From the NCBI GenBank assembly GCA_017541825.1, contig JAFXYJ010000043.1:17154-81153 (forward strand): a DNA stretch of 64,000 bases, in the 5' to 3' direction. Numbering within the stretch: position 1 is the stretch's first letter; each line of letters opens with the position of its first letter. A model generated the notes under the pieces. It was not told where the DNA came from. It made no database searches and was given only the letters and a program-made list of their open reading frames with translations. The translations under genes and the position numbers were made by a program. This DNA comes from Oscillospiraceae bacterium. GTDB lineage: Bacteria; Bacillota; Clostridia; Oscillospirales; Oscillospiraceae. This document shows, one piece after another, positions 37,020 to 57,943 of this stretch.

Positions 37020-37035
37020 TGGCACAGGACTTGCA
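37020..37035 (+). promoter_or_regulatory. Sigma-54 (-24/-12) promoter upstream of etfB
   Basis: TGGCAC-aggac-TTGCA matches the TGGCAC-N5-TTGCW consensus exactly. It lies 67 nt before the etfB ATG. Confidence 0.75.
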
Positions 37036-37101
37036 TTCAGGCTGGGTAAGGGAGAAGATTCCCGTCCACTTCACACAGATGAAACATGGGAGGAAGCAGG
37101 T

Positions 37102-37908
37102 ATGAACATTTTGGTATGCGTCAAGCAGGTCCCGGACACGACTCAGGTGAAGATCGACCCTGTCACCAACACGCTGATCCGCGAAGGGGTACCTGCCATC
37201 GTCAACACCTTTGATGCCTTTGCCCTGGAGGCCGCGGCACGCATCAAGGACAAGGATCCGTCCACCCGGATCGTAGTGGTCTCCATGGGCCCCGAAAACG
37301 CGAAAAACGCTCTCAAGGAGTGCCTGGCCATCGCGGCGGACAAGGCCTATCTGCTGTCCGCGCGGGCCTTCGGCGGCTCCGACACCCTGGCCACCAGCTA
37401 CATCCTCTCCAACGCGGTGAAGAAGGTCGAGGAGTTCGAGGGACACTTCGACATGATCTTCTGCGGCAAGCAGGCCATCGACGGCGACACCGCCCAGGTC
37501 GGACCGGAGCTGGCGGAGCACCTGGGATATCCCCAGGTCACCTGCTGCCTGGAGGTGCTGGATTTCGATGACAAGCACCTTGAGGTCCTCAAGGAAGGCC
37601 AGGACGCCAATTCCGTCATCAGTGTCCGGTTCCCCTGCGTGACTACCTGGACCAAGCCCTCCTTCGACCCCCGGTTCCCCACCATCAAGCGCAAGCTGGC
37701 GGCCAACCGTGCGGAGATCCGCGTGTTCACCGACGAGGACTTCCCGGATATCGACCGGACTGCCATCGGCCTGAAGGGCTCCGCGACGCGGGTGAAGAAA
37801 TCCTTTGTCCCGGTGCGGAAAAAAGACGGCATGATCATTGCCGAGGACACGGTGGAGGCATCCGCCGCAAAGCTGGTCGCTCTTTTGAACGACGCGCATG
37901 TGATTTGA
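37102..37908 (+). CDS. etfB: Electron transfer flavoprotein beta subunit
   Basis: MNILVCVKQVPDT... and GKQAIDGDTAQVGPELAEHLG. Length 268 aa. The track start at 36886 is an extension. Confidence 0.92.
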   Translation: MNILVCVKQVPDTTQVKIDPVTNTLIREGVPAIVNTFDAFALEAAARIKDKDPSTRIVVVSMGPENAKNALKECLAIAADKAYLLSARAFGGSDTLATSYILSNAVKKVEEFEGHFDMIFCGKQAIDGDTAQVGPELAEHLGYPQVTCCLEVLDFDDKHLEVLKEGQDANSVISVRFPCVTTWTKPSFDPRFPTIKRKLAANRAEIRVFTDEDFPDIDRTAIGLKGSATRVKKSFVPVRKKDGMIIAEDTVEASAAKLVALLNDAHVI

Positions 37909-37923
37909 CAGGAGGGAAGAAAC

Positions 37924-38934
37924 ATGATCGCCAAGACCAAGGACCTTTGGGTATTTGTTGAAACGAGAGAAAACGGCACGGCGAAGAACGTCGGCCTTGA
38001 GCTGCTCAACCCCGGCCGCAGGCTGGCGGAAAAGCAGGGGGGCGCCCTGGTGGCGGTGGTGATCGGCCACAACACCGACGCCGCCGTGGAGGCCTGCGCC
38101 CGGCACGACGCCGATAAGATCCTCGTGGTGGACGGTCCCGAGTATGAGAGCTACACTACGGACGCCTACGCCAACGCCATGTATCATCTGGTGACCAAAT
38201 ACGGGCCCACCACCCTCGTGATCGGGGCCACGCCCAACGGACGCGACTTCGGTCCCCGGGTGTCCTGCCGGCTCAGGACCGGCCTGACGGCCGACTGCAC
38301 CGCCCTGGACGTGGATGAGGAGAGCGGCAACATCGCCTGGACCCGCCCGGCCTTCGGAGGCAACCTGATGGCCACGATCCTGTGCGCCGAGGCCCGTCCC
38401 CAGATCGGCACCGTCCGTCCCGGCGTGTTCAAGAAGGCGCCGGAGACCGAGCCTCACGCCGAGATCATCCGCGAGGACTACCATGTCCCAGAGGAGGATA
38501 TCCGCACCAGGCTGCTTCGGGAGATCCACGACGCCGCCGAGGAGATCGTCGATCTCGAGGGCGCGGACATCATCGTTTCCGGCGGCCGCGGCGTCGGCGG
38601 CCCGGAGGGCTTCGCCACCCATATCAAGCCTCTGGCCGACGCGCTGGGCGCCACTGTCGGCGCGTCCCGCGCAGCCGTGGACTCCGGCTGGATCAGCCAT
38701 GCCCACCAGGTCGGCCAGACCGGCAAGACCGTGGCCCCGAAGCTGTATATCGCCTGCGGCATCTCCGGCGCGATCCAGCACCAGGCCGGCATGAGCGGCT
38801 CGGACTGCATCGTCGCCATCAACAAAGACCCCGACGCGCCTATTTTTGAGATCGCGCACTACGGCATCGTCGGCAACCTGTTCGAGGTGCTGCCGCTGCT
38901 GACCGCCGAGGTGCTCAAGCTCAAGGCCGAATAA
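37924..38934 (+). CDS. etfA: Electron transfer flavoprotein alpha subunit
   Basis: 336 aa. The C-terminal FAD-binding region reads IVSGGRGVG...GASRAAVDSGW...QVGQTGKTVAPKLYIACGISGAIQH. Confidence 0.92.
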   Translation: MIAKTKDLWVFVETRENGTAKNVGLELLNPGRRLAEKQGGALVAVVIGHNTDAAVEACARHDADKILVVDGPEYESYTTDAYANAMYHLVTKYGPTTLVIGATPNGRDFGPRVSCRLRTGLTADCTALDVDEESGNIAWTRPAFGGNLMATILCAEARPQIGTVRPGVFKKAPETEPHAEIIREDYHVPEEDIRTRLLREIHDAAEEIVDLEGADIIVSGGRGVGGPEGFATHIKPLADALGATVGASRAAVDSGWISHAHQVGQTGKTVAPKLYIACGISGAIQHQAGMSGSDCIVAINKDPDAPIFEIAHYGIVGNLFEVLPLLTAEVLKLKAE

Positions 38935-38948
38935 CATCTCCTTTGCAC

Positions 38949-38980
38949 GGCGTCCGCGGAGACAGGTCTCCGCGGACGCC
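38949..38980 (+). other. GC-rich stem-loop after etfA (possible weak terminator or processing site)
   Basis: GGCGTCCGCGGAGAC / GTCTCCGCGGACGCC are perfectly complementary arms. The U-tract is poor. Confidence 0.4.
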
Positions 38981-39023
38981 CGGCTGCTTTACATGCGTGG
39001 AAAAGAAAGGATACAGGAAGGAT

Positions 39024-39692
39024 ATGGAACTGAAAACGGCCATTATGGAGCGCCATTCCACCCGCGGCTTTTCCGACCGGCCCGTCTCCCGGGAGACGCT
39101 CAGGGATGTCCTGACCATGGCGGAGCGCGCCGTGTCCTCCGTCAACTGCCAGCCCTGGGAATTTGCCGTCGTCACCGGCGACGTGCTCCGGACGCTGTGC
39201 GCGGAGATCACCGAGTGCTTCGAACGCGGTGACCCCGCGGACATCACGCCCTGGTTCGGAGAGGGGATCTACCGCAGCCGCCGCAGTGAGATCGGGAAGC
39301 AGCTCTTCGCCGCGATGGACATCTGCCGGGAAGACCGGGAAAAACGCCGCTGGTGGACTGCCCGGGGCTACCGCTTTTTTGACGCGCCTGCGGCCATCCT
39401 GCTGATGATGGACAATTCGGCGGATGAGTTTTCCTGCCGGCTGGATATGGGCTGCGTGATCCAGAACATCTGCCTGGCGTCGATGGAGTTCGGCCTGGGG
39501 ACCTGCGTGGAGTACCAAGGCGTGTCCTATCTCGAGCCGCTGCGCCGAAACCTGCCCGCTTCCCAGGGCAAACGCTTCGTCTGCGCCATTGCCATCGGGT
39601 ACCCGGACGAGAGCTTTCCCGCCAACCGCGTCGTGTCCTCCCGGGCCGACGTGGACGAGATCACGTCCTGGTACGGTTTTGATGAGGAATAA
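39024..39692 (+). CDS. Nitroreductase-family flavoprotein
   Basis: Starts MELKTAIMERHSTRGFSDRPVSRETL...NCQPWEF, a typical nitroreductase N-terminus. Length 222 aa. Confidence 0.8.
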   Translation: MELKTAIMERHSTRGFSDRPVSRETLRDVLTMAERAVSSVNCQPWEFAVVTGDVLRTLCAEITECFERGDPADITPWFGEGIYRSRRSEIGKQLFAAMDICREDREKRRWWTARGYRFFDAPAAILLMMDNSADEFSCRLDMGCVIQNICLASMEFGLGTCVEYQGVSYLEPLRRNLPASQGKRFVCAIAIGYPDESFPANRVVSSRADVDEITSWYGFDEE

Positions 39693-39728
39693 CTTCCGTG
39701 CGCCGCGGCGCAGATCGGAGGCGATGAG

Positions 39729-40712
39729 ATGATCGAAGAAATTGGAACGGGGATCTATCGCATAGGCGTCCCGCTGCCGGACAATCCGCTCCGGGAGCTC
39801 AACAGCTACTTTCTCCGGGGGACCGACCGGGACCTGCTCATCGACACCGGATTCCGGAATCCCGTGTGCCAGAGCGCGCTGGAGGAGGGACTGCGGACGC
39901 TGGAGTCCGACCCCGCGCGGCGGGATGTGCTGCTCACGCATCTGCACTCCGACCACTCCGGGAACGCCGATCTGTTCGCGCTTCCCGGCCGGCATGTGTA
40001 TCTGAGCGGCACGGACCTCGGTTATCTGCGCCAATTCCGCAGCGGAGCGATCCTGGAGCGCCAGCGCGCCCGCTACCTCGCGGAGGGCATGCCGTCAGCG
40101 CTGGAAAAGGAGATCAGCGCCGTGAACCCGGCGGACAACCAGGCCATCGAGCAGATCACCGATCAGTTCGTCCCCCTGCGGGACGGCGATGTGATCTCCG
40201 TGGGAGACCTGTCCCTGGAGACCGTGCTGGTGCCGGGCCACACCCCGGGGAACACGGTCTTCCTTTGCCGGAGGCAGGGGATCCTTTTCAGCGGTGATCA
40301 CATCCTCTTCGACATCACGCCCAACATCACCGCATGGGACGGCGTGGAGGATTCGCTGGGGGATTACCTGGACAACCTGAACCGGATCCGGGATCTGCCG
40401 GTAAAGCAGACGCTGCCGGGACACCGCGGACCCGGAGAGTTCCGCCCCCGGGTGGACGAGCTGCTGCGGCACCACCGCAGACGGCTGAACGAGGCCCGGC
40501 GGATCGTGGAGGAAAACCCCGGTCTGAACGCCTTTGAGATCACCGCGCAGATGACCTGGCAGATCCGTGCCCGCAGCTGGGATGATTTTCCCATCACGCA
40601 GAAATGGTTCGCCATGGGCGAGTGCATGTCCCATCTGGACTATCTCCGCCGCCGCGGCCTGATCCGCCGGGAGGAGTTCGGCGGCATGCGCCGTTATTAC
40701 GCCTCGCTGTGA
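39729..40712 (+). CDS. MBL-fold metallo-hydrolase
   Basis: Contains the HxHxDH motif in LTHLHSDHSGN, and later VPGHTPG. Length 327 aa. Confidence 0.8.
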   Translation: MIEEIGTGIYRIGVPLPDNPLRELNSYFLRGTDRDLLIDTGFRNPVCQSALEEGLRTLESDPARRDVLLTHLHSDHSGNADLFALPGRHVYLSGTDLGYLRQFRSGAILERQRARYLAEGMPSALEKEISAVNPADNQAIEQITDQFVPLRDGDVISVGDLSLETVLVPGHTPGNTVFLCRRQGILFSGDHILFDITPNITAWDGVEDSLGDYLDNLNRIRDLPVKQTLPGHRGPGEFRPRVDELLRHHRRRLNEARRIVEENPGLNAFEITAQMTWQIRARSWDDFPITQKWFAMGECMSHLDYLRRRGLIRREEFGGMRRYYASL

Positions 40713-40777
40713 CCGGGAAAGGATGAGTCTGCGGCGGGAGGCTCATCGGACGGTGCATTATGTAGCTATTGTGAGTC

Positions 40778-40846
40778 AAAGGTAACACATTGGCACACAT
40801 GTACCCGCATATGCCCGGGGATTTGTTACCATTTCCGCATGGAAAC
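40778..40846. promoter_or_regulatory. Candidate enhancer (UAS) elements upstream of the second sigma-54 promoter
   Basis: AAAGGTAACACA (40778-40789), the inverted partner TGTTACC (40824-40830), and the palindrome ATTTCC-GCAT-GGAAAC (40831-40846). These resemble the arms and centre of the 36904-36946 palindrome. Confidence 0.45.
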
Positions 40847-40891
40847 GGAGCGAAAGCACGGAAAATGTCACAATTTAAAGGTTAATCAAGT

Positions 40892-40907
40892 TGGCACAAA
40901 GTATGCA
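40892..40907 (+). promoter_or_regulatory. Sigma-54 (-24/-12) promoter upstream of the GntP/CoA-pathway operon
   Basis: TGGCAC-aaagt-ATGCA. The GG and GC dinucleotides are correctly spaced. It lies about 187 nt before the ATG at 41094. Confidence 0.7.
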
Positions 40908-41093
40908 TAATAGTAGGAGACATTTGCCAAAATGTCTCACAGGTTTTACCGGATATTCGTTGCTCTGACGAAGAACTCCGCAAACGGCAGTGCTTTTTCG
41001 GGAAAGGAGGGGATGACCGGACACGGACGGAAGCCAATCCTGTTGATACATCATCAGAAATCGGAAAGAAAGGAATAAGGGGGATTTTCAATC

Positions 41094-42416
41094 ATGACTT
41101 CTGCAGAGATTCTCAGTTTAATCGGTGTCATCGTCGCTCTGGGCGGACTGGCGTTCTTCGTACTGAAGGGTGTGAACAACTATCTGATGGCCTTCATCGC
41201 CACGGTGCTGATCGCCATCACCAGCGGACTGAACATTTATGAGACGCTGGTCAAGACTTATATGGGCGGCTTCACCGGCTACATCGCCCAGTGGTTCATC
41301 GTATTCTATGCCGGCGCGCTGTTCGGCAAGCTGATGGCGGACTGCGGCGCGGCGGAGACCGTCGCCCACGGCCTGGTCAAGCTCGTCGGCAAAAAGCTGG
41401 CGCCCTGCGCTCCTATCATTGCCGGCGCCGTCATGGGCTACGGCGGCATCACCACCTTCGTCATCGGCTTCTGCGTGGTGCCTATCGCGGTGCAGATCTT
41501 CCGCGACGCGAACCTGCCCCGCCGGCTGATCCCCGGCGCCATCTTCATCGGCCCCACCATCGCCATGGTCGCCCCGGGCTCGCCCCAGATCGCGAACATC
41601 GTCTGCTCCACCGCCTGCAACACGAACTACATGGGCGGCGGCCTTGCCGGCTGGATCGCGGACCTGGTCTTCGGCCTGGGCACCGTCTGCGTGCTCTTCC
41701 TGTGGATGATCAAGCGCGCCGTGGCCAAGGGTGAGTACTTCATCCCGAAGGATGTGGACAATGTCACCTCTGACAGTGACAGCAGGGAGCGTCCGGGCAT
41801 GCTCACCAGCATCCTGCCGCTGCTGATCACCGTCGTGGCCATCAACATCCCCAACGGCCAGGGCGGGAACCTGATCCCCACCGAGTACGGCCTGCTCCTC
41901 GGCTGCCTGTCCATCATCCTGCTGAACCTGAAGTTCTTTGACAAAAAGGCCATCGTCCCCGCGCTGGGCGACGGCTTCAAGACCGCCATCACCATCATCG
42001 GCAACACCGCCGCCATCGTCGGTATCGGCGCGGTGGTCAAGGCCACCCCGATGTTCGGCCCTGTGGTCGAGAGACTGACCTCCGGCACCGGCAATCCCTA
42101 CGTGGGCGGCGCGGTCTCCATCGCCCTGCTGGCCGGCATCCTGGGCAGCGCTTCCGGCTCCACCAGCCTCGGCGCTCCTCTGCTGGCTCCCGCCTTCATC
42201 GCGCAGGGTGCTGATCCCGGCATGCTGGCCCGCGTCATGTGCATGGCCTCCTCCACGCTGGACTCCCTGCCCCACAGCGGTGCCGTCGTATCCACCATCG
42301 ACGCCATGTGCCACGAGGAGTACAAGGGCTCTTACGGCTGCGTGTTTATGCTGACGGTTGTCGGCACCACGGTCATGACCCTGTCCGCCATCATCATGGC
42401 GATGCTCTTCTATTGA
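41094..42416 (+). CDS. GntP-family anion:H+ permease (paralog 1)
   Basis: 440 aa, polytopic. Collinear with the second copy at 43343. Confidence 0.8.
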   Translation: MTSAEILSLIGVIVALGGLAFFVLKGVNNYLMAFIATVLIAITSGLNIYETLVKTYMGGFTGYIAQWFIVFYAGALFGKLMADCGAAETVAHGLVKLVGKKLAPCAPIIAGAVMGYGGITTFVIGFCVVPIAVQIFRDANLPRRLIPGAIFIGPTIAMVAPGSPQIANIVCSTACNTNYMGGGLAGWIADLVFGLGTVCVLFLWMIKRAVAKGEYFIPKDVDNVTSDSDSRERPGMLTSILPLLITVVAINIPNGQGGNLIPTEYGLLLGCLSIILLNLKFFDKKAIVPALGDGFKTAITIIGNTAAIVGIGAVVKATPMFGPVVERLTSGTGNPYVGGAVSIALLAGILGSASGSTSLGAPLLAPAFIAQGADPGMLARVMCMASSTLDSLPHSGAVVSTIDAMCHEEYKGSYGCVFMLTVVGTTVMTLSAIIMAMLFY

Positions 42417-42478
42417 TCTGACCGGGCAGCGAAGCGTCACAGTCAGCATTTTCAGAACCTTTTAAGGAGGGTATCTCA

Positions 42479-43276
42479 TTGTCCAAGGATTATCTGAACG
42501 AGGCGTATCAGGATGTGATCCTGGAGGTCAGGGGGCGCATCGCTTATGTGACCCTGAACCGTCCCCACAAGCTGAATGCCATGACTATGAATACCAAGGG
42601 CGAGATCGTCCGGATCTTTCAGGGTCTGGATCAGGACCCGGACGTCTGGGGCGTGATCGTCACCGGCGCAGGCAAGAGCTTCAACGTGGGCTCCGACGTC
42701 AGCCACCATCCCGCCAGCTGCGAGGAGGCGTTTGACGAGATTACCTTTTCCCAGAACGTCCTCAATACGATCGAGAAATGCAGCAAGCCCGTGATCGCGG
42801 CCATCAACGGCTACTGCCTGGGCGGCGGCATCGAGCTGGCCCTTGTGTGCGACCTGCGGATCGCCAGCGAAAAGGCCTCCTTCGGTCTGCCGGAGGCGAA
42901 GCTGGGCGTGATCCCTTCCTACGGCGGCACCCAGCGTCTGACCCGGCTGTGCGGCGCGGCCCTGGCCAAGGACCTGTGCTTCACCTGCCGGAGGATGCCC
43001 GCCGACGAGGCGCTCAGCTGGCATCTGATCAACCGTCTCGTGCCCCATGAGCAGCTGATGGACGAGGCAACGAAGTATATGGAAGAGATCCTCGCCAACG
43101 CGCCGATCGCCCTCAAGTACTGCAAGTACAGCATCAACAACGGCGCGGAGATCAGCCTGGAGAAAGGGCTGGAGATCGAGAAGCTGAGCTTCGCCATGTG
43201 CATCGCGTCCGAGGACTGCGCCGAGGGCATGGCCGCTTTCGCGGAAAAGCGCGAGCCTCAGTTCAAGAACCGCTGA
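42479..43276 (+). CDS. Enoyl-CoA hydratase/isomerase (crotonase) family protein 1
   Basis: VTLNRPHKLNAM, ITGAGKSFNVGSD, INGYCLGGGIELAL and a C-terminal AEGMAAFAEKREPQFKN. TTG start with an AAGGAGG RBS. Confidence 0.85.
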   Translation: MSKDYLNEAYQDVILEVRGRIAYVTLNRPHKLNAMTMNTKGEIVRIFQGLDQDPDVWGVIVTGAGKSFNVGSDVSHHPASCEEAFDEITFSQNVLNTIEKCSKPVIAAINGYCLGGGIELALVCDLRIASEKASFGLPEAKLGVIPSYGGTQRLTRLCGAALAKDLCFTCRRMPADEALSWHLINRLVPHEQLMDEATKYMEEILANAPIALKYCKYSINNGAEISLEKGLEIEKLSFAMCIASEDCAEGMAAFAEKREPQFKNR

Positions 43277-43342
43277 TACCGGCACGCCGGATCCCCGGAT
43301 CGAGAGAATAAAGAAACAAATCCATAAAACGGAGGGAGAAAA

Positions 43343-44650
43343 ATGTCAATCACGACGATCAGTCTGCTGGGCATCATACTGGGCCTGGCCTGTCTGGTGT
43401 TCTTTTCCTTCAAGGGCCTGAACATCTACCTCAACTCGTTCCTGTTCGTTTTCATCGTCGCGCTGACGGGCGGCCTTGATATCTACAAGACCTTCGTCAC
43501 CACCTACATCGGCGGCTTCACGGGCTTCATCACCGGCAACTTCTTCGTGTTCGTGGCCGGCACCGTGATGGGCCAGTGCGCGCTGATCACCGGCGCAGCA
43601 AAATCCATCGCCAACGGCATCGTCAAGGCCTTCGGCAAGAAGGGCGCCCTGCTGGCAGTGCCCATCGCCTGCCTGGTGCTGTCCTACGGCGGCGTCTCTG
43701 CCTTCGTGGTCGGCTTCACCGTGTTCCCCATCGCCCTGGAGGTCTTCCGCAACAACGACGCCCCCCGCCGCCTGATCATCAGCGGCATCTGCTTCGGCGG
43801 TGCCACCGTGGCCATGTGCGGCCCCGGCGCGCCTCAGGTCCAGAACAGCATCCCCGCCAACGCCTGCGGCGTGAGCCTGATGGCCGGCTCCGTCTGCGGC
43901 TTCATCGGCTGCGCGGTGACCCTTGTCGTGGGCTACACCTGGTATATGTACATGATCAAGCGCGCCATGGCCCGTGGCGAGCACTTCGTGGCCAAGGACG
44001 GCGACTTCTCCGACAAGACCGAGGAGAACATCCCGCCCTTCATCACCTCCATCATCCCGCTGATCGTGACCCTGATCCTCATCAACACCATCCTGCCGCT
44101 GGAAGTCGGTGTCGTCTTCGGCGCGCTGCTGATGGTCGTCATGAACATCAAGTACTACCCCACCTGGAAGACCGAGTTCCTGCCTGAGATGGGCAAGGCC
44201 GTCGCCAACGCGCTGATGTTCATCGGCAGCGTCGCGGCCATCGCCGGCGTCGGCGGCGTCGTCAAGGCGACCCCGGGCTTTGAGGCCGTTGTCTCCTTCC
44301 TCGACACCGCATCTCTGGGCAACCCGCTGATCGGCGCCTCCGTGGGCACCATGATCCTCTGCGGCATCACCGCCTCCGCCTCCGGCGGCCTGGGCATCGC
44401 CGCGCCGATCCTGTCCGAGATGTACGCCGGCCAGGTCAGCATGGCGGCGCTGTCCCGTATCATGTCCATGGCCTCCATCACCTTTGACTCCATGCCCCAC
44501 AGCGGCGGCATCGCGGCGAACATCTACGGCATCGGCCGTGAGACCCACAAGACCGCTTACATCCCCATCATGAACCTGTGTCTGTGGACACCCTGCGTAG
44601 GCCTGGCGGTCTCGCTGATCCTGTTTACACTCTTCCCCAATCTCCCGTGA
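43343..44650 (+). CDS. GntP-family anion:H+ permease (paralog 2)
   Basis: 435 aa. Same topology and shared motifs with 41094..42416, for example PRRLI, DS(L/M)PHSG. Confidence 0.8.
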   Translation: MSITTISLLGIILGLACLVFFSFKGLNIYLNSFLFVFIVALTGGLDIYKTFVTTYIGGFTGFITGNFFVFVAGTVMGQCALITGAAKSIANGIVKAFGKKGALLAVPIACLVLSYGGVSAFVVGFTVFPIALEVFRNNDAPRRLIISGICFGGATVAMCGPGAPQVQNSIPANACGVSLMAGSVCGFIGCAVTLVVGYTWYMYMIKRAMARGEHFVAKDGDFSDKTEENIPPFITSIIPLIVTLILINTILPLEVGVVFGALLMVVMNIKYYPTWKTEFLPEMGKAVANALMFIGSVAAIAGVGGVVKATPGFEAVVSFLDTASLGNPLIGASVGTMILCGITASASGGLGIAAPILSEMYAGQVSMAALSRIMSMASITFDSMPHSGGIAANIYGIGRETHKTAYIPIMNLCLWTPCVGLAVSLILFTLFPNLP

Positions 44651-48556: not shown

Positions 48557-48585
48557 CAGCATTTTTGCGCAAGGAGAGAATGTGA

Positions 48586-49365: not shown

Positions 49366-49398
49366 TCCACCGTTTTTTCAAAAAAGGAGACCGACAAT

Positions 49399-50629: not shown

Positions 50630-51475
50630 ATGTTCAGCAAAGATCTGATCGGGACCAAGGTAGGTCCCTTTGAGTTTCCCTATACCTGGAAGGATGTCGT
50701 GCTGTACGCTCTGGGCGTGGGCGCCGGCGAAGACGCGAGCGAGGAGTGCTTCGTCTACGAGAAGAAGCTCAAGGTGCTCCCCACCTTCGGCGCGATCCCG
50801 CAGCCGGTGGCTCCCATCTCCCTGCCCAAGCGGACCGTGAGCGACATCAAGGGCATGCTCCACATGGAAAACGAGCTGATCGTCCACAAGACCCTGGATC
50901 CCAGGGGCGGAAAGCTGTTCTATGAAACCTCCATGGAAAAGCTCTATGACCGCGGCCCCGGCAAGGGCGCCAAAATGGTGATCCGCACCGACGTATATGA
51001 CGAGCTTGGCGACCTGGTCTACGAGAACCACGACGCGATGTTCTCCCGGGCCGACGGCGGCTGGGGAGGAGAAATGCCGCCCCGCAATGAGAACGACATG
51101 CCCGACCGCGCGCCCGATGTGGAGGACCGCGCCGTGCCGGCAGTCACACAGCCCATGCTGTACCGGCTGGGCAGCCGGGATCTCTTCCCGCTGCATATCG
51201 ACAGGGAATTCGCCGAGGCCAGCGGCTTTGAGCGCCCGATCATGCACGGGCTGTGCACCTACGGCTATGCCTGCCGCATGAGTATCAGGAACCTGTTCCC
51301 GGGAGAACCGGAGCGGCTTCGCCGCATCAACGCCTGCTTCATGAAGTCTCTGTACCCCGGAGATCCGATCAAGCTCCAGCTCTGGAAGATCGGGGAACGG
51401 GAGGCGAGATTCCAGATCGTCAATGAACGCACCGGCGAGGTGCCCATCGGCAAAGGCGTCCTGGAGTGGATCTGA
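50630..51475 (+). CDS. MaoC-like (R)-specific enoyl-CoA hydratase/dehydratase (double hot-dog)
   Basis: The C-terminal half contains YRLGSRDLFPLHIDREFA...GFERPIMHGLCTYG, a MaoC motif. I prefer the ATG at 50630 because of its RBS (AAGGTGAGGA). The track start is GTG at 50618. Confidence 0.8.
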   Translation: MFSKDLIGTKVGPFEFPYTWKDVVLYALGVGAGEDASEECFVYEKKLKVLPTFGAIPQPVAPISLPKRTVSDIKGMLHMENELIVHKTLDPRGGKLFYETSMEKLYDRGPGKGAKMVIRTDVYDELGDLVYENHDAMFSRADGGWGGEMPPRNENDMPDRAPDVEDRAVPAVTQPMLYRLGSRDLFPLHIDREFAEASGFERPIMHGLCTYGYACRMSIRNLFPGEPERLRRINACFMKSLYPGDPIKLQLWKIGEREARFQIVNERTGEVPIGKGVLEWI

Positions 51476-51490
51476 TGGTTCACACGCAAT

Positions 51491-51521
51491 GCCCGCCGGG
51501 AGAGCTTTTCTCCCGGCGGGC
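51491..51521 (+). other. Strong stem-loop between the MaoC and ligase genes, followed by a TATAAT hexamer
   Basis: GCCCGCCGGGAGA-gcttt-TCTCCCGGCGGGC forms a 13-bp perfect stem. TATAAT lies at 51530-51535. There is no U-tract. Confidence 0.45.
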
Positions 51522-51588
51522 GGGCATGCTATAATGGACAGAGAATAAACGGCTTCCCCGCGCAGACTGCGGCAAATCAGATCGCGAG

Positions 51589-53526
51589 GTGGAAAACATG
51601 ACCCCTGCTGTTTTTGACAATAAAAGGACGCTGCGCATAGAGATCACTGCCGTCCGGGGACTCCCGTCCGTGCCGGCGGGAAAAATGCTGACCGTCGCCG
51701 ACTATCCCCACAGGGCGGAGATCGATCTGGAACCGCTGTCGCTGCCCGACTGGGCGCAGCGGCAGCTGGCACAGCAGCTTCGGGAGCTGCCGGAGATATC
51801 CGGAGAGAACGTCGTGAAGCTCCGGGATCCGGAGGCCGGGGACGTCAGCGCCGACGTCCGTATCCGCCGCTATGTGGACGCCCGGATCGAGGATGTGCTC
51901 GCCTGGCAGGCGGAGCACCGGCCGGACCGGGAGGCGCTGGTGGACCTGAATACCGAACGGCGCTATACCTATGCAGACCTGGATCGTCTCAGCGGCCGCC
52001 TGGGCGACGCGCTGTGCCGGCTCGGCCTGCCGCTCAACAGCCACGCGGCCGTCGTGCTGCCCACGGGAGCGAACAACTTCCTCACGAAATTCGCCATCAA
52101 CCGGGCCGGCGCCGTCATCGTCAACGTGAATTTCATGGAGCGCCCTGCGACCATGTTCACCATGGTGCGCAACAGCGACTCACAGGTTGTGTTTATGCGG
52201 CCGGGCACCAAGGGCACCGAGTTTATCGACTGGCTCTATGAGAACTGTCCCGAGCTCAGGGACGCCGTGCCGGGAGAGCCGCTCTCGCTGGAACAGTTCC
52301 CCTGCCTGCGCCATGTGGTGATCTGCGACTCGGCGGTACGGTATCCCGGAACGATCGCGCTGGAGGACCTGTATGCGGAGCCTCGGGACGGCCGCCTCGG
52401 CGCCCTCGACGCGCGCAGCGGATACAAAAGCAGCGACGATGTGTGCACGATCATCCACACTTCCGGCACCACCGCCACTCCCAAGGGTACGATGCTGCTG
52501 CACCGGAGCATCGCCGAGGTGCTGTGCGTCCAGGCGGAGATGCTCGGTCTGGGCGAAGACAGCCGGACCTGCCTGAGTCTGCCGCTGTTCCACGCCTTCG
52601 GTTCCATCGGCACCTCGCTGCCCACCTTCCTGATGGGCGGCTGCGTGGTCTGTATGGACCGGCCGCTGCCCTCGTCCATCGCGGACGCGCTCCGGGACGA
52701 GCGATGCACCGTGCTGTGCAACGTTCCGTCCACCTACCTCCGGCTGTTGGAGGATATCCATCGCCGGCAGATCCCCCGGGAGGCGTTCAGTCTGAAAAAA
52801 TGCGTGGCTGCGGGCGCCGCCTCCACAGAAGCCATGCTGCTGGATGTGGCGGACACCTTCGGCGTACAGGACGTGATCGCGACCTACGGCATGACGGAGA
52901 CCGCGACCGGCGTCACCGGCTCCCGCAGTGACGACGATCTGGAGGCCCGCACCAAGACCGTCGGCGTGGTTTGGCCGGGCGTGGAGATGAAATTCGTCGA
53001 TCCCGCCGACGGGCAGGAGGTCCCCCCGGGGAAGACCGGGGAGATCGTGGTCCGCGGCTTTAACATAATGAAAGGCTACTACAAGATGCCCGAGGAGACG
53101 GCGGCGGTGCTCAGTCCCGACGGCTGGCTCAAAACCGGGGATCTGGGTTATATGCGGCCCGACGGACATGTCTGCTTCGTAGGCCGGCTCAAGGAGAGCA
53201 TCAAAAAATACGGAGAGACGATCAGCCCCGTGGAAATCGAAAACGTGCTCATCCGGGAGCCTCACATCGCGGCCAGCAGCGTCATCGGCGTTCCCGACGA
53301 TCAGGTCGGGGAGGAGATCGCGGCCTTTGTGATCCTAGAGCCCGGCGCCGAGGTGACTCCCGAGGAGATCCGCGCGTTCTGCGCAAAGGATCTGCCCCGG
53401 TTCAAGGCGCCGAAGTATATCTTCTTTGTGGACACATTCCCCTATTCGGGGACCGGAAAGGTCCTGAAAGCCGAGCTGCGCAAGTGGGCGGAGGAACGGC
53501 TCGGCAGGAAACAGGAATCGACCTGA
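51589..53526 (+). CDS. AMP-forming acyl-CoA ligase (ANL superfamily) with an N-terminal extension of about 95 aa
   Basis: AMP-binding motif IIHTSGTTATPKGTM, then YGMTET, GDLGYMRPDG and a C-terminal GKVLK. The canonical ligase fold seems to begin near aa 95 (IEDVLAWQAEHRPDREALV). The true start is uncertain. Confidence 0.85.
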   Translation: MENMTPAVFDNKRTLRIEITAVRGLPSVPAGKMLTVADYPHRAEIDLEPLSLPDWAQRQLAQQLRELPEISGENVVKLRDPEAGDVSADVRIRRYVDARIEDVLAWQAEHRPDREALVDLNTERRYTYADLDRLSGRLGDALCRLGLPLNSHAAVVLPTGANNFLTKFAINRAGAVIVNVNFMERPATMFTMVRNSDSQVVFMRPGTKGTEFIDWLYENCPELRDAVPGEPLSLEQFPCLRHVVICDSAVRYPGTIALEDLYAEPRDGRLGALDARSGYKSSDDVCTIIHTSGTTATPKGTMLLHRSIAEVLCVQAEMLGLGEDSRTCLSLPLFHAFGSIGTSLPTFLMGGCVVCMDRPLPSSIADALRDERCTVLCNVPSTYLRLLEDIHRRQIPREAFSLKKCVAAGAASTEAMLLDVADTFGVQDVIATYGMTETATGVTGSRSDDDLEARTKTVGVVWPGVEMKFVDPADGQEVPPGKTGEIVVRGFNIMKGYYKMPEETAAVLSPDGWLKTGDLGYMRPDGHVCFVGRLKESIKKYGETISPVEIENVLIREPHIAASSVIGVPDDQVGEEIAAFVILEPGAEVTPEEIRAFCAKDLPRFKAPKYIFFVDTFPYSGTGKVLKAELRKWAEERLGRKQEST

Positions 53527-53561
53527 TCGCAGAAAAGACATCAGAGAGGGATGAGAAAAAC

Positions 53562-54779
53562 ATGAATGCAAGGCGCACGGAAAACAAGTGGTTTTATCTG
53601 ATTTGCGGTGCGTTCGGGATGCTGATGATCGGTGTGATCTACGCCTGGAGCATCCTGAAAACACCGCTGGCGGAGGAATTCGGCTGGGGTGTGACGGAGC
53701 TTGCGCTGAACTTCACGCTGACGCTGTGCTTTTTCTGCGTGGGCGGCGTGCTGGGCAGCACGCTCTCTTCCCGTTTTTCTCCTCGCGTCACCATCCTGAC
53801 GGCTGCCGCCTGCCTCTGTGCGGGGTTCGTGATCTGCTCACGGATGAGCGGAGCGAGCATTGCCGCACTGTATCTGGCCTACGGCGGGCTGGGAGGCATC
53901 GGGATCGGCATGGCCAACAACGCCATCGTTTCCCAGTGCAACGCCTGGTTCCCGGGGCAGCGGGGCACGTCTACCGGCGTGCTGATGATGTGCTTCGGTC
54001 TGAGCTCTCTGCTGCTGGGCAAGCTTGCGGCAGCGCTGATGGAGATCCCGGAGATCGGCTGGCGGACCACCTACATGATCATCGGCATCGCCATCGCGGC
54101 GGTGCTGGTGCCGCTGGCCATGATCCTGCGTATGCCGCCCCGCAGCGCGGAGGCTTCTCCCGCCGGAGAGGAAACGGCAGCGGCGCAGGCGGAAAAACGG
54201 GAATACGACTCCCGTGAGATGATGAAGCGCCCCAGCTTCTGGAAGTTTTATGCCTACAGCATCCTGACCTGCGCCGTAGGCAGCACGGTGATCAGCTTTG
54301 CCCGCGACCTTGCCCTGTCCGTGGGCGCCTCGGCGGCGCTGGCCACCACACTGGTGGGCGTGCTGTCGCTGTGCAACGGCCTCGGCCGGATCCTGTTCGG
54401 CCTGATCTTCGACCGCCTCGGCCGCAAGAAGACGATGATCCTGTCCAACCTGCTGACCATCGTCGCTCCCGCCACGATCCTGTTCTCCCTGAGCATCCGC
54501 TCCCTGCCGCTGAGCATACTCGGCTTCTGCCTGACCGGCATCGCCTACGGCAGCAGCCCCACGATCTCCGCGGCGGTGGTCAGTGAGCTCTACGGCGTGC
54601 GCCACTACCCGAAAAACTACAGTCTGGCCAACACCATGGTCATTTTCGCCTCTGTTATGTCAACCGTTGCCGGCAAGATGCTCGAGCTGACCGGGGGATC
54701 GTATCTGCCGGTATTCATCGTTCTGCTGGTGTGCGCGGTGGCGGCTCTGTTCCTGAACTTCCGCATCCGGGAGGCGTGA
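53562..54779 (+). CDS. MFS transporter (oxalate/formate antiporter-like subfamily)
   Basis: Starts MNARRTENKWFYLICGAFGMLMIGVIYAWSI. About 12 TM segments. Length 405 aa. The track start at 53484 overlaps the ligase gene. Confidence 0.8.
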   Translation: MNARRTENKWFYLICGAFGMLMIGVIYAWSILKTPLAEEFGWGVTELALNFTLTLCFFCVGGVLGSTLSSRFSPRVTILTAAACLCAGFVICSRMSGASIAALYLAYGGLGGIGIGMANNAIVSQCNAWFPGQRGTSTGVLMMCFGLSSLLLGKLAAALMEIPEIGWRTTYMIIGIAIAAVLVPLAMILRMPPRSAEASPAGEETAAAQAEKREYDSREMMKRPSFWKFYAYSILTCAVGSTVISFARDLALSVGASAALATTLVGVLSLCNGLGRILFGLIFDRLGRKKTMILSNLLTIVAPATILFSLSIRSLPLSILGFCLTGIAYGSSPTISAAVVSELYGVRHYPKNYSLANTMVIFASVMSTVAGKMLELTGGSYLPVFIVLLVCAVAALFLNFRIREA

Positions 54780-54921
54780 TACCGGGCCGACGAACAAAAG
54801 GTCTCCATCGGGTGTCAGCATTCCGGCTGTTTGATCGATATTGATTATCGGCGTAAAAGCACAAAACCGACAGGGTACGCCGCCAAAGGGCAGGAACCGC
54901 TGTTTTCTTTTGCCGGAAGTG

Positions 54922-54962: not shown

Positions 54963-56915
54963 ATGAGAATCCTTTCTGCTTCCGCGGAAAAGACGGCCGA
55001 TGTTATTGAGACGATGACCCAGCACTGCCGGCAGATCCTGGATCCCGAGGTCTCCTCTTTCCGGATCTGCCCGGAGGAAGAGATCCCTTCCGTTAAAAAG
55101 AAAAGCGTGACGACCTATGCCTACTCCAACCGGGTGATCCGCGACAGCATGGCGTCCGTCCACAACCCGATGCTGGGCGCGGCGGTCTTCGACCAGAACG
55201 GCTGGCTGATCCGGCTCTACGGCAGGGCGGAGTTCCGCGAATGGGCGGCCCGGCGGGGGATCGTGCCTTTCTCCAACTGGCTGGAGGACAGCGCCGGTGT
55301 CAACGCGGTCTCGGTGGGCATGGCCTGCAAGGCGTCGGTCGAGATGTTCGGCGGGGAGAACTACTGCTCCCTGCTCAGAGATACCGCCATTTACTTTACG
55401 CCCTATATCTTGGATCTGGGCCAGACCTTCGACCGGGAAGATTACCGCACGCTCGGCGGCGTAGCCATCATCACGCCGCTTGGTGACGGGCCGGAGGACT
55501 ATCTTTTCACCACCGAGGCGATCGCCAAGGAGGTCGCGCTGCATCTGCACATGGTACAGTGCTTTGAGGAATTCTTCAACACAGAGACCGAGGGTCACAT
55601 TTCCATCGATTTCGATCTGGCCACGTCGGTCCCCCATTTGCTCTATCACAGCAACAATATTTACAAGATCCTCGGCATCGGGGAGCGCAATCTCCACTTT
55701 GAACCGGTGGGCACGGTATTCGACCCCCTGCCGAAGAACCGGGAATTCTGGCGCATCGTCAATGAGGGCATGGCCGTGCAGAACCGACGCATCACCCTGT
55801 GCATCCAGGGCGTCGAGCGGGAATTCACGATCCGCACGCTGCCCTATCAGCAGCGCTTCATCGGCTTCAAGGGGGTGCACATCTTCCTGCAGTCCCAGAA
55901 GCTGAAGACCTCCAGCGTATCCAAGGACGTGGGCAATATCGCCCAGCTCACCTTTGAGGACATCGTCGGGGAATCCCCCGTGATGGTGCAGACGATCCGC
56001 CAGGCCAAGACGCTCTCGGCCAGCGATCACACGATGCTGATCCTCGGCGAGAGCGGCGTGGGCAAGGATCTGTTTGCCCGGGCGATCCACAGCTTCAGCC
56101 GCCGGAGCCAGGGACCCTTCGTGACGCTCAACTGCGCCGCGATCCCCCGGGAGCTCATCGCCAGCGAGCTGTTCGGCTACTCCGACGGCGCCTTTACCGG
56201 CGCCAAGCGGGGCGGCAATATGGGCAAATTCGAGCTGGCCGATTCGGGCACGATTTTTCTCGATGAGATCGGCGATATGCCGCTGGAGCTCCAAGCCACC
56301 CTGTTGGACGTGATCGAGAGCAAGAGCTTCATGCGGGTGGGGAGTAATGTCCGCCGGAAGGTGGATGTGCGGGTCATTGCCGCCACCAACGCGGATATGG
56401 CCGAGCGAATCTACAAGCGACAGTTCCGGGAGGACCTTTTTTACCGCCTTTCCGCGACGCAGCTGTCCATCCCGCCGCTGCGGGCCAGGGGAACGGACAT
56501 CGTGCTGCTGGCGGAATACTTTATCAGCAGTCTTTACAACGACGAAGCGTTCAAGCCGCAGCCGATCCTTTCGGCGGAAGCCAAGCGCCTGCTGATGTCG
56601 CTGCCCTGGCGGGGCAATGTACGAGAGCTGCGCAACGTGATCACAAATGTGGTCAGCCTCTACGACGACCACATCATCAGCGCCGAGCATATCCAGCGCC
56701 ATCTGGTCGGCAGCAAGCTGTATACCGAGCCTTATCCGGCGGAAACATTGTCCTACGCCGCGTCCAACGGCTACGGCCGCAACCGTACGATCACGAAGGA
56801 GGAGCTCGAAGACTGCCTTCGCAAGAATCAGTACCAGAAGGCCGCGGCGGCACGGAGCCTGGGCATCTCGCGCAAGACGCTGTACCGCTGGCTCAAGCAG
56901 TTCGATCTGGCCTGA
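54963..56915 (+). CDS. Sigma-54-dependent transcriptional activator (bEBP): ligand-sensor N-domain, AAA+ domain, Fis-type HTH
   Basis: Walker A GESGVGKD. The sigma-54 contact loop GAFTGA is present, as are the DEIGDM Walker B and the C-terminal HTH AARSLGISRKTLYRWLKQF. I recognised no receiver domain. I prefer the ATG at 54963 because of the AGGAGG RBS. The track start is 54942. Confidence 0.9.
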   Translation: MRILSASAEKTADVIETMTQHCRQILDPEVSSFRICPEEEIPSVKKKSVTTYAYSNRVIRDSMASVHNPMLGAAVFDQNGWLIRLYGRAEFREWAARRGIVPFSNWLEDSAGVNAVSVGMACKASVEMFGGENYCSLLRDTAIYFTPYILDLGQTFDREDYRTLGGVAIITPLGDGPEDYLFTTEAIAKEVALHLHMVQCFEEFFNTETEGHISIDFDLATSVPHLLYHSNNIYKILGIGERNLHFEPVGTVFDPLPKNREFWRIVNEGMAVQNRRITLCIQGVEREFTIRTLPYQQRFIGFKGVHIFLQSQKLKTSSVSKDVGNIAQLTFEDIVGESPVMVQTIRQAKTLSASDHTMLILGESGVGKDLFARAIHSFSRRSQGPFVTLNCAAIPRELIASELFGYSDGAFTGAKRGGNMGKFELADSGTIFLDEIGDMPLELQATLLDVIESKSFMRVGSNVRRKVDVRVIAATNADMAERIYKRQFREDLFYRLSATQLSIPPLRARGTDIVLLAEYFISSLYNDEAFKPQPILSAEAKRLLMSLPWRGNVRELRNVITNVVSLYDDHIISAEHIQRHLVGSKLYTEPYPAETLSYAASNGYGRNRTITKEELEDCLRKNQYQKAAAARSLGISRKTLYRWLKQFDLA

Positions 56916-56948
56916 GCCGCTGCGGACAGTATCGGGAGGAGGAAAACC

Positions 56949-57887
56949 GTGTTTGATCTGTGCCGATTGCTGAACATCCGGTATCCCATCATCCAGGGCG
57001 CCATGGGGCATGTGACTGGCGGCGCCATGGCGGCCGCCGTGACGCGCGGGGGCGGCCTGGGGACCATCGCCTCCGCCGAAAAGCCGCTGGAATACGTTCA
57101 GCGGGAATACCGTCTGGCAAAGGAACTGACCGACGGACCGGTGGCGCTGAACATCCCCGTCAACAACAGCCGCTGCGCGGATATCGCCCGTTTCGTCCTC
57201 GACGAGCATGTGGACGTGGTCGTCACCAGCGCCGGGAGCCCGAAAGCCTTTCTGGCGGACTGGAAGCGCGAGGGGATCCGGGTCATATCCGTGGTGGCCA
57301 CGGTCGAGCACGCCAGAAAGATGTCCGACGCCGGCGTGGATGTCATCGTGGCGGAGGGCATGGAATCCGGCGGCAGGATTGGCAGCATGACCACCATGAC
57401 GCTCATTCCGCAGGTAGTGGACGCGGTGTCGGTCCCGGTGGTGGCTGCCGGCGGGATCGCCGACGGCCGGGGGATCGCCGCGGCTTTTGCGCTGGGAGCC
57501 TGCGGCGTACAGATCGGCACCCGGTTCCTGTTTGCCGAGGAATGCCCCGTCCACGAGAATTTCCGTCGGGCCATCCTGGCGGCGAAGTCGGCCGATGTGG
57601 TCATCACCGGCCGCCCCTACAGCTACCGGGGCGAGGCGCGGATCCTGCGCAACGCACTGTACGAAAAGTACATCGAAATGGAAAAGAGCGGAGCGGCGGA
57701 TGAGGACTACAAACCGCTGTTTGACGCCTCCATGCCCCGCGCCCTGGTGGAGGGCGACGTGGAAAACGGTTCGCCCATGGTCGGGCAGATCGTCGGCATG
57801 TGCAGCCGAGTTCAGCCCGCGGCGGAGATCATCCGCGAGCTGGTGGACGACTACAACCGTCAGCCCGGCCTTCCCCGCATTTCCTGA
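56949..57887 (+). CDS. NMO/FabK-like FMN oxidoreductase (nitronate monooxygenase / enoyl reductase family)
   Basis: IRYPIIQGAMGHVTGGAMAAAVTRGGGLGTIAS and AAGGIADGRGIAAAFALGACGVQIGTRF. GTG start with a GGGAGGAGG RBS. Confidence 0.85.
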   Translation: MFDLCRLLNIRYPIIQGAMGHVTGGAMAAAVTRGGGLGTIASAEKPLEYVQREYRLAKELTDGPVALNIPVNNSRCADIARFVLDEHVDVVVTSAGSPKAFLADWKREGIRVISVVATVEHARKMSDAGVDVIVAEGMESGGRIGSMTTMTLIPQVVDAVSVPVVAAGGIADGRGIAAAFALGACGVQIGTRFLFAEECPVHENFRRAILAAKSADVVITGRPYSYRGEARILRNALYEKYIEMEKSGAADEDYKPLFDASMPRALVEGDVENGSPMVGQIVGMCSRVQPAAEIIRELVDDYNRQPGLPRIS

Positions 57888-57907
57888 TCGACGACCCGCA
57901 TATAAAA

Positions 57908-57943
57908 GAGGCTGCCGCAAATGTTCTGCGGCAGCCTCTTTTT
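57908..57943 (+). terminator. Intrinsic terminator ending the island
   Basis: 12-bp stem GAGGCTGCCGCA / TGCGGCAGCCTC with a 7-nt loop, followed by TTTTT. Confidence 0.8.

Follow-up and report, generated by a model that had tools for sequence, protein, structure and literature searches.

A sigma-54-controlled cassette in which genes for a crotonase, a GntP-like permease, a CoA-transferase, an acyl-CoA dehydrogenase (ACAD) and the two subunits of an electron-transferring flavoprotein (Etf) occur together has been listed as the 'YctR' regulon by Nie et al. (PMC6615313). In C. difficile the cassette comprises CD0800-0805 and CD0806 and its sigma-54 promoter was mapped by the transcription start site; no SigL-dependent regulation was seen under the qRT-PCR conditions used, and the authors suggested for most such genes that the inducer is not present in TY medium (PMC7438776). 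Here we analyze a 64,000-nucleotide stretch of DNA from an Oscillospiraceae bacterium (hereafter, the window), which holds a locus of 17 co-directional genes on the + strand at positions 37020-57943. In gene content and protein similarity, this locus is a rare and enlarged variant of the sigma-54 crt-gntP-CoA-transferase-acd-etfBA cassette and introduces no new principle. The cassette, which was overlooked in an earlier note on this DNA, is its closest relative. On balance, the locus probably encodes a 'CoA loop', switched by sigma-54 and an enhancer-binding protein (EBP), for which one or two small carboxylic acids of the hydroxy- or 2-enoate type would serve as electron acceptors.

A search with the permease retrieved the cassette from C. 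difficile, Clostridium bovifaecis and Fusobacterium (loci L038, L039 and L040) in the order crotonase-GntP-CoA-transferase-ACAD-EtfB-EtfA, with an adjacent gene for a PAS-type sigma-54 EBP. The Oscillospiraceae locus shares with it a sigma-54 promoter and an adjacent EBP with a GAFTGA motif, co-directional permease, crotonase, ACAD and EtfBA genes without thiolase or 3-hydroxyacyl-CoA dehydrogenase (HADH), and the DGDTAQVG segment of EtfB. Identities to the cassette proteins are 38-41% and 44-48% for GntP-like permeases 1 and 2 (the latter against those of C. difficile, C. bovifaecis and Fusobacterium), 45-47% for crotonase 1, 50-54% for the Bcd/AcrC-like ACAD1 and 46-51% for EtfA. However, the locus has 17 genes rather than 6-7, carries the permease, crotonase and ACAD in duplicate, keeps etfBA in a separate operon, and adds genes for a MaoC protein, a ligase, a major facilitator superfamily (MFS) transporter, a nitroreductase, a metallo-beta-lactamase (MBL)-fold hydrolase and a FabK-like enzyme. 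Its EBP is 650 aa long and has a large sensor region, DhaR/AcoR-like and with no PAS match, whereas the cassette EBPs are of the PAS type and have 458-469 aa. Its two CoA-transferases come from another, rare clade (33-35% identity to those of the cassette), and its ACADs score below the NCBIfam cut-off for the acryloyl-CoA reductase AcrC, whereas the cassette ACADs score above it. Because the CoA-transferases are not orthologous and the ACADs fall below AcrC, we regard the locus as a variant of the cassette and not as its orthologue.

The locus is bounded by a sigma-54 promoter at 37020 and a terminator at 57904-57942. Protein families were assigned with Pfam and NCBIfam, gene starts were refined using independently assembled copies, and all gene families listed in the earlier note were thereby placed on the + strand of this interval. 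The window proteins match NCBI records MBR6114160-176 from an Oscillospiraceae metagenome-assembled genome (93 kb contig), and the window is GC-rich (~0.63). The cluster was also found on independent metagenome contigs and in two diverged lineages, and this recurrence, together with the match to the NCBI records, indicates that it is not an artefact. Both flanks are unrelated to the locus, with genes for a LysA-like decarboxylase and one methyltransferase to the left, and for a second methyltransferase and an Opp/Dpp ABC system to the right. The two methyltransferases were rejected as duplicated insertion borders, being 30% identical and sharing the S-adenosylmethionine-binding motif alone. 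The features of the locus are listed below in their order along the DNA.

36904-36946, no strand assigned: candidate enhancer (upstream activating sequence, UAS) of P1, a 43-nt perfect palindrome with four GGNAACAC/GTGTTNCC half-sites, ~75-115 nt 5′ of P1
37020-37035, + strand: sigma-54 promoter P1 (TGGCACAGGACTTGCA), an exact TGGCAC-N5-TTGCW match 67 nt 5′ of the etfB ATG
37102-37908, + strand: etfB, 268 aa, bifurcating-type small Etf subunit (Pfam ETF)
37924-38934, + strand: etfA, 336 aa, large Etf subunit (Pfam ETF and ETF_alpha)
39024-39692, + strand: nitroreductase-family flavoprotein (NfnB-like), 222 aa (Pfam; PDB 3gr3, 7dp0, 2wzv)
39729-40712, + strand: MBL-fold metallo-hydrolase, 327 aa (Pfam Lactamase_B; NCBIfam Strvi_7410 below cut-off; PDB 2zo4, uncharacterised hydrolases)
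40781-40847, no strand assigned: candidate UAS of P2 with GGTAACAC, TGTTACC and TTTCC-GCAT-GGAAAC elements, more degenerate than the P1 site
40892-40907, + strand: sigma-54 promoter P2 (TGGCACAAAGTATGCA), one mismatch to the consensus, 187 nt 5′ of gntP1
41094-42416, + strand: GntP-like (ion transporter superfamily) anion permease 1, 440 aa (Pfam GntP_permease, 34.6 bits)
42479-43276, + strand: crotonase 1, short-chain enoyl-CoA hydratase-like (Pfam ECH_1), GGGIE and LPE motifs with both catalytic Glu
43343-44650, + strand: GntP-like anion permease 2, 435 aa (Pfam)
44816-45952, + strand: ACAD1, Bcd/AcrC-like (Pfam), catalytic Glu in IYEGT (PDB Bcd 4l1f, 5ol2)
46009-47247, + strand: family III CoA-transferase 1 (Pfam CoA_transf_3), catalytic Asp in GVGDQ, best PDB match 114 bits
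47312-48556, + strand: family III CoA-transferase 2, GVGDQ Asp, 63% identical to transferase 1
48586-49365, + strand: crotonase 2, both catalytic Glu kept
49399-50535, + strand: ACAD2, Bcd-like, catalytic Glu in IVEGT (Val for the straight-chain Tyr) and Ser for the partner Gln
50630-51475, + strand: two-domain MaoC/hydratase-2-like (R)-specific enoyl-CoA hydratase (Pfam; PDB human MFE-2 hydratase 1s9c, 143 bits)
51598-53526, + strand: AMP-forming acyl-CoA ligase, 642 aa (Pfam AMP-binding and AMP-binding_C; all NCBIfam models below cut-off)
53562-54779, + strand: MFS monocarboxylate transporter, OFA family, SfMCT-like (Pfam MFS_1; NCBIfam SfMCT 243.7 against a cut-off of 320)
54963-56915, + strand: bacterial EBP (bEBP), 650 aa, AAA+ domain with GAFTGA, Walker A and HTH_8
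56949-57887, + strand: NMO-family, FabK-like FMN enoyl reductase (Pfam NMO; PDB FabK 7l00, 273 bits)
57904-57942, + strand: intrinsic terminator-like hairpin and T-run, a 16-bp stem followed by TTTTTAT, closing the locus

Control of the locus by sigma-54, as proposed in the earlier note, is well supported at the sequence level by the two −24/−12 promoters, the repeats clustered upstream and the GAFTGA-bearing bEBP. When both strands of the 64 kb were searched for TGGCAC-N5-TTGCW with at most one mismatch, P1 and P2 were the sole two matches. This number equals the chance expectation but the placement does not, since both promoters lie on the coding strand, in two long intergenic regions, at the heads of operons. 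The GGNAACAC element has 14 matches in the window, four of them at 36907-36943, and 14 was reached in 0 of 100 shuffles. The palindrome at 36904-36946 would be the enhancer of P1, and the elements at 40781-40847 may form the UAS of P2. In a diverged copy of the cluster (L041, described below), a sigma-54-like promoter (AGGCATGTGAATTGCT) lies 5′ of the nitroreductase gene, with the same half-sites clustered ~90-135 nt further upstream. We rejected the palindrome as a terminator, because no + strand gene ends 5′ of it and because L041 has the half-sites without the perfect palindrome. The N-terminal 335 aa of the bEBP gave no Pfam match; the ~330-aa sensor region is called DhaR/AcoR-like solely from a full-length alignment to DhaR that scored below threshold. 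A hairpin with a 9-bp stem (GAGACATTTGCCAAAATGTCTC) at 40917-40938, directly 3′ of the P2 −12 element and within the 187-nt leader, may be a regulatory element.

The earlier note had associated the DGDTAQVGP segment of EtfB with bifurcating Etfs, and by this diagnostic site and its nearest structures the window Etf is of the bifurcating type. The segment spans EtfB residues 127-135, and IDGDTAQVGP aligned to residues 121-130 of A. fermentans EtfB, with its Gly at Gly123. That residue is invariant across bifurcating Etfs, whereas canonical ones have a bulky residue instead (PMC12630350). The best five PDB matches of EtfB were CarD, A. fermentans EtfB, C. difficile EtfB, LctB and T. maritima EtfB (192-228 bits), whereas canonical ETFs scored 65-78 bits, about one third of the scores of the bifurcating/confurcating Etfs. 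Similarly, the best five PDB matches of EtfA were all bifurcating/confurcating Etfs, which scored ~1.4-2 times as high as canonical ETFs. EtfA aligns from CarE residue 68 on and is without the N-terminal ferredoxin domain of CarE.

The ACADs and CoA-transferases were placed by profile and pairwise scores. For both ACADs the best PDB matches were butyryl-CoA dehydrogenases. The Tyr/Gln pair that marks straight-chain acyl-CoA dehydrogenases (PMC12630350) is present in ACAD1, and ACAD2 has Val/Ser in its place. The closest relative of ACAD2 (44.7%) is an ACAD from an fld/had-type locus that is likewise without the Tyr. AcrC was the top-scoring named NCBIfam model for both (533 bits for ACAD1 and 412 for ACAD2, against a cut-off of 640), but we rejected this best match as meaningful in itself, because control ACADs (Had/Fld-type and others) scored 394-476 and the cassette ACADs 695-737. 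On this scale ACAD1 is intermediate between the control and the cassette ACADs and is no member of AcrC. The earlier note had held that ACADs within the butyryl-CoA dehydrogenase clades, if also induced by fatty acids, would speak against its reading; by sequence, both ACADs do group with Bcd/AcrC-type enzymes, which corresponds to the first half of that condition.

A crotonase, a Bcd-like ACAD and an Etf also make up the final steps to butyryl-CoA, and Nie et al. give crt-gntT-caiB-bcd-etfAB the label 'butyrate/butanol synthesis' (PMC6615313). Nevertheless, housekeeping butyrate synthesis is a highly improbable function for the locus. There is no thiolase or Hbd in the window, and the presence of three transporters, of a ligase and of an EBP dedicated to sensing an effector suggests that the substrate is exogenous. 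In addition, the cluster is rare, its genomic contexts differ, and the cassette ACADs class as acryloyl-CoA reductase and not as Bcd.

The CoA-transferase clade is rare, with ~8 cluster representatives at ≥60% identity among 5.8 billion; beyond these, identity is ≤44%. A search of the contigs of species-representative genomes with CoA-transferase 1 returned only ~30% proteins, nearly all gammaproteobacterial, and no orthologue. A metagenome contig search with the alignment of the clade returned no matches, so that the clade seems absent from that contig collection. The pair is kept in all three lineages of the cluster, which implies that the duplication is older than those lineages.

The best named NCBIfam models of the two CoA-transferases were formyl-CoA, succinate-glutarate and succinyl-CoA:mesaconate transferases and their best PDB match was succinate-hydroxymethylglutarate CoA-transferase, in line with C4-C6 dicarboxylates as substrates (itaconate, mesaconate, glutaconate or 3-hydroxyglutarate type). 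In that case the transferase pair would be heteromeric or would each serve one carboxyl end, with MaoC of the mesaconyl/itaconyl-CoA type and ACADs of the methylsuccinyl/glutaryl-CoA type. The permeases, which are 42% identical to each other and have weak Pfam matches (34-35 bits), would fit as members of the ion-transporter superfamily with weak CitMHS matches, and the UniRef name of their C. difficile homologue is 'divalent anion symporter'. HMGL-like, CitMHS and second CoA-transferase genes upstream of C. difficile-type cassettes also agree with such substrates. However, the NCBIfam scores named above were all far under cut-off, the crotonases and ACADs are most like short-chain monocarboxyl-CoA enzymes, the MFS protein is nearest to an L-lactate monocarboxylate transporter, and the cluster is without lyase or decarboxylase. 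We therefore consider dicarboxylate substrates decidedly unlikely. Because all enzymes of the locus look most like short-chain CoA enzymes, the favoured substrates would be C3-C6 3-hydroxy/2-enoate acids, for example 3-hydroxypropionate/acrylate, 3-hydroxybutyrate/crotonate and homologues.

The earlier note had reported that thiolase and HADH were missing from the window, and had reasoned that their routine presence in related clusters would indicate classical beta-oxidation. A Pfam scan of the 64 kb found neither a thiolase nor a 3-hydroxyacyl-CoA dehydrogenase of the 3HCDH type among all other predicted window genes, and neither was found in the sequenced parts of the diverged copies L030 and L041. 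For a wider view, genes within 6 kb of the permease were counted in 80 metagenome loci obtained by a permease-alignment search. A crotonase was a neighbour in 55 of the 80 loci, a CoA-transferase in 52 (family III in 45, family I in 7), an ACAD in 36, an EBP in 31, an Etf in 17 and a thiolase in none, so that this part of the note was borne out. Thirty-seven loci had enough flank, and 24 of these contained crotonase, CoA-transferase and ACAD together, 23 of the 24 with an EBP as well. Neither thiolase nor 3HCDH was among the families listed from a Pfam scan of census neighbour representatives, and the recurrent unassigned neighbours were unrelated (TetR, MCRA, a sulfate permease with Sulfate_transp and STAS, AsnA and BKACE). 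A probe for Hbd, run without a positive control, had no matches in the census loci and carries no weight.

These counts bear on an oxidative use of the locus, in which a saturated short-, branched- or odd-chain acid would be activated, dehydrogenated (from ACAD to Etf, by reverse bifurcation) and hydrated, with HADH and thiolase supplied from elsewhere, or in which a crotonate/3-hydroxybutyrate-type dismutation would run both ways. The ACADs lie in the Bcd/SCAD group, which agrees with such a use, and an (S)- plus an (R)-hydratase permits epimerisation towards an (S)-specific dehydrogenase. Furthermore, two distant paralogous CoA-transferase loci, L033 and L037, both contain a thiolase, and L037 also a short-chain dehydrogenase/reductase (SDR). 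Both encode a family III CoA-transferase (39-40% to those of the window), an NMO/FabK-like reductase and a sigma-54 EBP, and L037 has a crotonase and a distant GntP-like permease besides; neither ACAD nor Etf occurs in the stretches seen. This composition suggests that NMO-type enzymes serve as enoyl-CoA reductases in that sister cassette family. For a fermenter that has no respiratory chain, however, the oxidation of acyl-CoA is energetically difficult, and a bifurcating-type Etf with a Bcd-like ACAD is normally reductive in Clostridia. Given also the missing thiolase and HADH in the window and its two diverged clusters, and the count of zero for thiolase in the 80 cassette-type loci, we consider an oxidative use unlikely.

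Recurrent variants of the cassette were also seen. In the C. difficile-type loci L038, L050, L053, L054 and L070, the upstream genes encode a CitMHS transporter and a further CoA-transferase of family III, a distant one, with an HMGL-like lyase in four of the five (L070 ends before that position); these genes look like a separate CoA-ester lyase module. The L068-L087 subgroup has a crotonase-GntP-CoA-transferase-ACAD-EBP arrangement without etfBA, with a TetR regulator and a gene of the MCRA family (fatty-acid hydratase) as recurrent neighbours. Genes for BKACE (beta-keto acid cleavage enzyme) were present in three census neighbour clusters.

Two diverged copies of the window cluster were compared. 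The proteins of L041 are 72-95% identical to those of the window, and the DNA is 79-82% identical (L041 5900-21308 against window 38900-54800). The GC content of L041 is 0.52, compared with 0.62 in the window cluster, and the L041 cluster has a lower GC content than the DNA to its left (0.58), where the neighbours (DHDPS, TRAP DctPQM and LarA_N) differ from those in the window. Such differences would fit a horizontally transferred cluster. L041 has no etfBA upstream; instead, its operon is headed by the nitroreductase gene (80% identity), which comes first, and the MBL hydrolase gene (72%). That both are kept at the head of L041 argues that they belong to the system. The copy in L030/L031 encodes proteins that are 69-83% identical, in the order GntP-ACAD-CoA-transferase-CoA-transferase-crotonase-ACAD-MaoC. 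In some metagenome copies, among them scaffold_2441 (L001/L027) and L029, etfB is truncated (163 aa) and the genes for CoA-transferase 1 (171 + 258 aa) and the bEBP (~222 + 439 aa) are split, either by assembly frameshifts or by decay; the window versions are all intact.

The conservation of an NfnB-like nitroreductase and an MBL hydrolase as leading genes in two lineages, together with the rarity of the cluster, would fit a masked or substituted plant acid as substrate. The nitroreductase and/or the MBL hydrolase would unmask 3-nitropropionate or a lactone, for example, after which elimination of the substituent and enoyl-CoA reduction by the CoA enzymes would yield propionyl-CoA or a homologue. 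In the search returns for papers on rumen nitro-compounds, the term 'nitroreductase' did not appear. However, the proposal is built on broad family names, the core cassette functions in the absence of the two genes, no ammonia-lyase or nitrite-handling gene is present, and the NMO-family gene is FabK-like and no nitronate monooxygenase, all of which make such a substrate very unlikely. Judging provisionally from sample labels, the cluster may occur in the ruminant gut. A more elaborate form of the proposal, in which the conserved nitroreductase, MBL hydrolase and FabK-like genes would serve to handle a plant-derived acid of the ruminant diet (3-nitropropionate, another nitro-acid or a lactone) that is unmasked and then passes through two successive modules of dehydration/elimination and enoyl-CoA reduction with a bifurcating Etf, would amount to an undescribed energy-conserving 'acid respiration' in Oscillospiraceae; this, too, we regard as quite doubtful. 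The MBL hydrolase could possibly be a thioesterase or a lactonase.

The earlier note had likened the locus to the cai/fix and car pathways and had stated that a ligase, CoA-transferase, crotonase, ACAD and Etf define the car and fld pathways as well. To our knowledge, neither the car nor the fld operons include a crotonase, and the second statement was inaccurate. By profile scores and gene content, the locus belongs to none of cai/fix, car and fld. Scores for the carnitine pathway proteins were 2-5 fold below the NCBIfam cut-offs: CaiA 207.7 and 182.1 (540), CaiB 94.8 and 78.9 (413), CaiC 215 (651), CaiD 179 (500), FixA 72.8 (219) and FixB 119.7 (549). The E. coli caiTABCDE/fixABCX system resembles the locus in ligase priming, family III CoA-transferase cycling, dehydration by a crotonase, reduction by an ACAD and Etf-type electron supply. 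It differs in its BCCT antiporter (CaiT) and FixCX, families that were found in no window gene, and in its FixAB-type Etf, the window Etf being of the clostridial bifurcating type.

The carABCDE operon of A. woodii supplies the top PDB matches of EtfB and EtfA (CarD and CarE) and similarly combines a CoA loop of ligase and CoA-transferase with an ACAD-Etf complex reducing an enoyl-CoA. CarC, in contrast, scored 318.6 bits with ACAD1 (rank 10) and 278 with ACAD2 (rank 24), behind several Bcd/SCAD enzymes, and the CarE ferredoxin domain is not in the window EtfA. We know of no crotonase, MaoC protein or GntP permease in the car system. The fld/had pathways use a radical 2-hydroxyacyl-CoA dehydratase. 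Transferases of such loci are 36-37% identical to the window CoA-transferases, and one such locus supplies the closest ACAD to ACAD2, but the HGD-D and BcrAD_BadFG domains of an HgdAB-type dehydratase and its activator, both present in reference loci L034 and L036, were absent from the window. The crotonases and MaoC in place of an HgdAB-type dehydratase imply 3-hydroxy rather than 2-hydroxy chemistry. The fld/had-type pathways are likewise controlled by sigma-54 (LeuR/hadA; PMC6615313, PMC7438776).

Two further systems offer partial precedents. In the bbsEFGH-type module of anaerobic toluene degradation, a two-subunit family III CoA-transferase acts with an ACAD and a crotonase, so that heteromeric transferases of family III have a precedent. 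The adjacent paralogous transferase genes, followed by crotonase and ACAD, resemble that module, but equivalents of bbsCD and bbsAB (dehydrogenase and thiolase) are missing and the organism and niche are different. In C. propionicum (AcrABC) and Anaerostipes rhamnosivorans, an ACAD and EtfBA reduce a short enoyl-CoA, and the Anaerostipes route shares crotonase-type dehydration and CoA-transferase cycling with the locus, whereas the CoA-transferases of both are of other families and neither has dedicated permeases or an EBP. The Anaerostipes route from 3-oxo/3-hydroxypropionyl-CoA to propionate by crotonase and ACAD/Etf has proteomic support (PMC8355322).

Taken together, these comparisons support the general logic of the earlier note, namely CoA-dependent activation, dehydration and enoyl-CoA reduction of anionic substrates. 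In the CoA loop that we favour, an effector would be sensed by the DhaR/AcoR-like region of the bEBP, which would bind the GGNAACAC repeats and open both sigma-54 promoters, with P1 driving etfBA, the nitroreductase and the MBL hydrolase and P2 driving a run of 11 genes that begins with gntP1 and ends with the MFS transporter gene. The acid would be taken up through the GntP-like permeases. The AMP-forming ligase, whose N-terminus gave no Pfam match, would prime the first CoA ester, and the paired family III CoA-transferases would then pass CoA from the product acyl-CoA to the incoming substrate. The (S)-specific crotonases and the (R)-specific MaoC hydratase would convert the 3-hydroxyacyl-CoA to the 2-enoyl-CoA, and the Bcd/AcrC-like ACADs would reduce it with electrons from the bifurcating-type EtfBA, driven by NADH and probably with co-reduction of ferredoxin. 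The FabK-like enzyme may be an alternative NADH-dependent enoyl reductase; it scored 332.5 bits against FabK TIGR03151 (cut-off 453.1) and so falls outside FabK proper, its gene comes after the bEBP gene, and the window contains no fab genes. The saturated acid would leave the cell, possibly via the SfMCT-like MFS transporter. The permease, crotonase, permease and ACAD1 genes would form one module and those for CoA-transferase, crotonase, ACAD2, MaoC, ligase and MFS transporter another, which suggests two substrates or two successive steps.

Several observations weigh against this reading. The AcrC scores of both window ACADs stay below cut-off, as do those of EtfA with AcrA (364.5 against 600) and EtfB with AcrB (215.8 against 475). 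The CoA-transferases are about as close to the Had/Fld-type 2-hydroxyacid transferases (36-37%) as to the cassette enzymes (33-35%). The catalytic Asp and His of MaoC align to those of 1s9c, but the motif reads RDLFPLH and not GDxNPxH, and a regex search for the canonical hydratase-2 motif had no match in the protein. No rpoN, ferredoxin, Rnf or hydrogenase genes were found within the window, and a bifurcating-type sequence is no proof of bifurcation, so that this activity of the Etf is presumed. The thiolases of the distant loci L033 and L037 point the same way, and our literature searches found no functional study of CD0800-0806 or of GntP and CoA-enzyme clusters in general. Finally, a scan for internal terminators and sigma-70 promoters gave counts at chance level, and for this reason we infer the internal operon limits; the reductive direction, the operon extent and the roles of the nitroreductase and MBL hydrolase are likewise our interpretation.

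Three other features of the window stood out. A 2619-aa BspA-type leucine-rich-repeat protein is encoded at 269-8128 (+ strand; LRR_5 total 1239 bits in 14 stretches), partly within a low-GC stretch (0.52-0.54 at 2-6 kb compared with ~0.65 elsewhere). A cobalamin riboswitch (RF00174, 101 bits; 27473-27677, + strand) lies directly 5′ of the gene for an 899-aa protein (27811-30510, + strand) with three CbiK cobalt-chelatase stretches, an unusual triple-CbiK architecture, which is followed by a lipoprotein-like open reading frame. At 13412-15226 (− strand) lies the gene for a protein of the FtsW/RodA/SpoVE family that has an FHA domain at its N-terminus.

The core cassette is widespread in anaerobes of the gut and of fermentation reactors, including C. 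difficile and Fusobacterium, and no study naming its substrate or inducer was found in the literature searched. Because the cassette ACADs are of the acryloyl-CoA reductase class and come without thiolase or dehydrogenase, we hypothesize that acids of the 3-hydroxypropionate/acrylate type serve as electron acceptors and are reduced to propionate. The Oscillospiraceae version shows how the cassette has diversified, with a second module, new CoA-transferases and accessory flavoenzymes. The locus might represent a sink, so far unrecognised, through which acids from plants or the host influence the short-chain fatty acid output of the gut. If its Etf does bifurcate, the pathway would also be energy-conserving.

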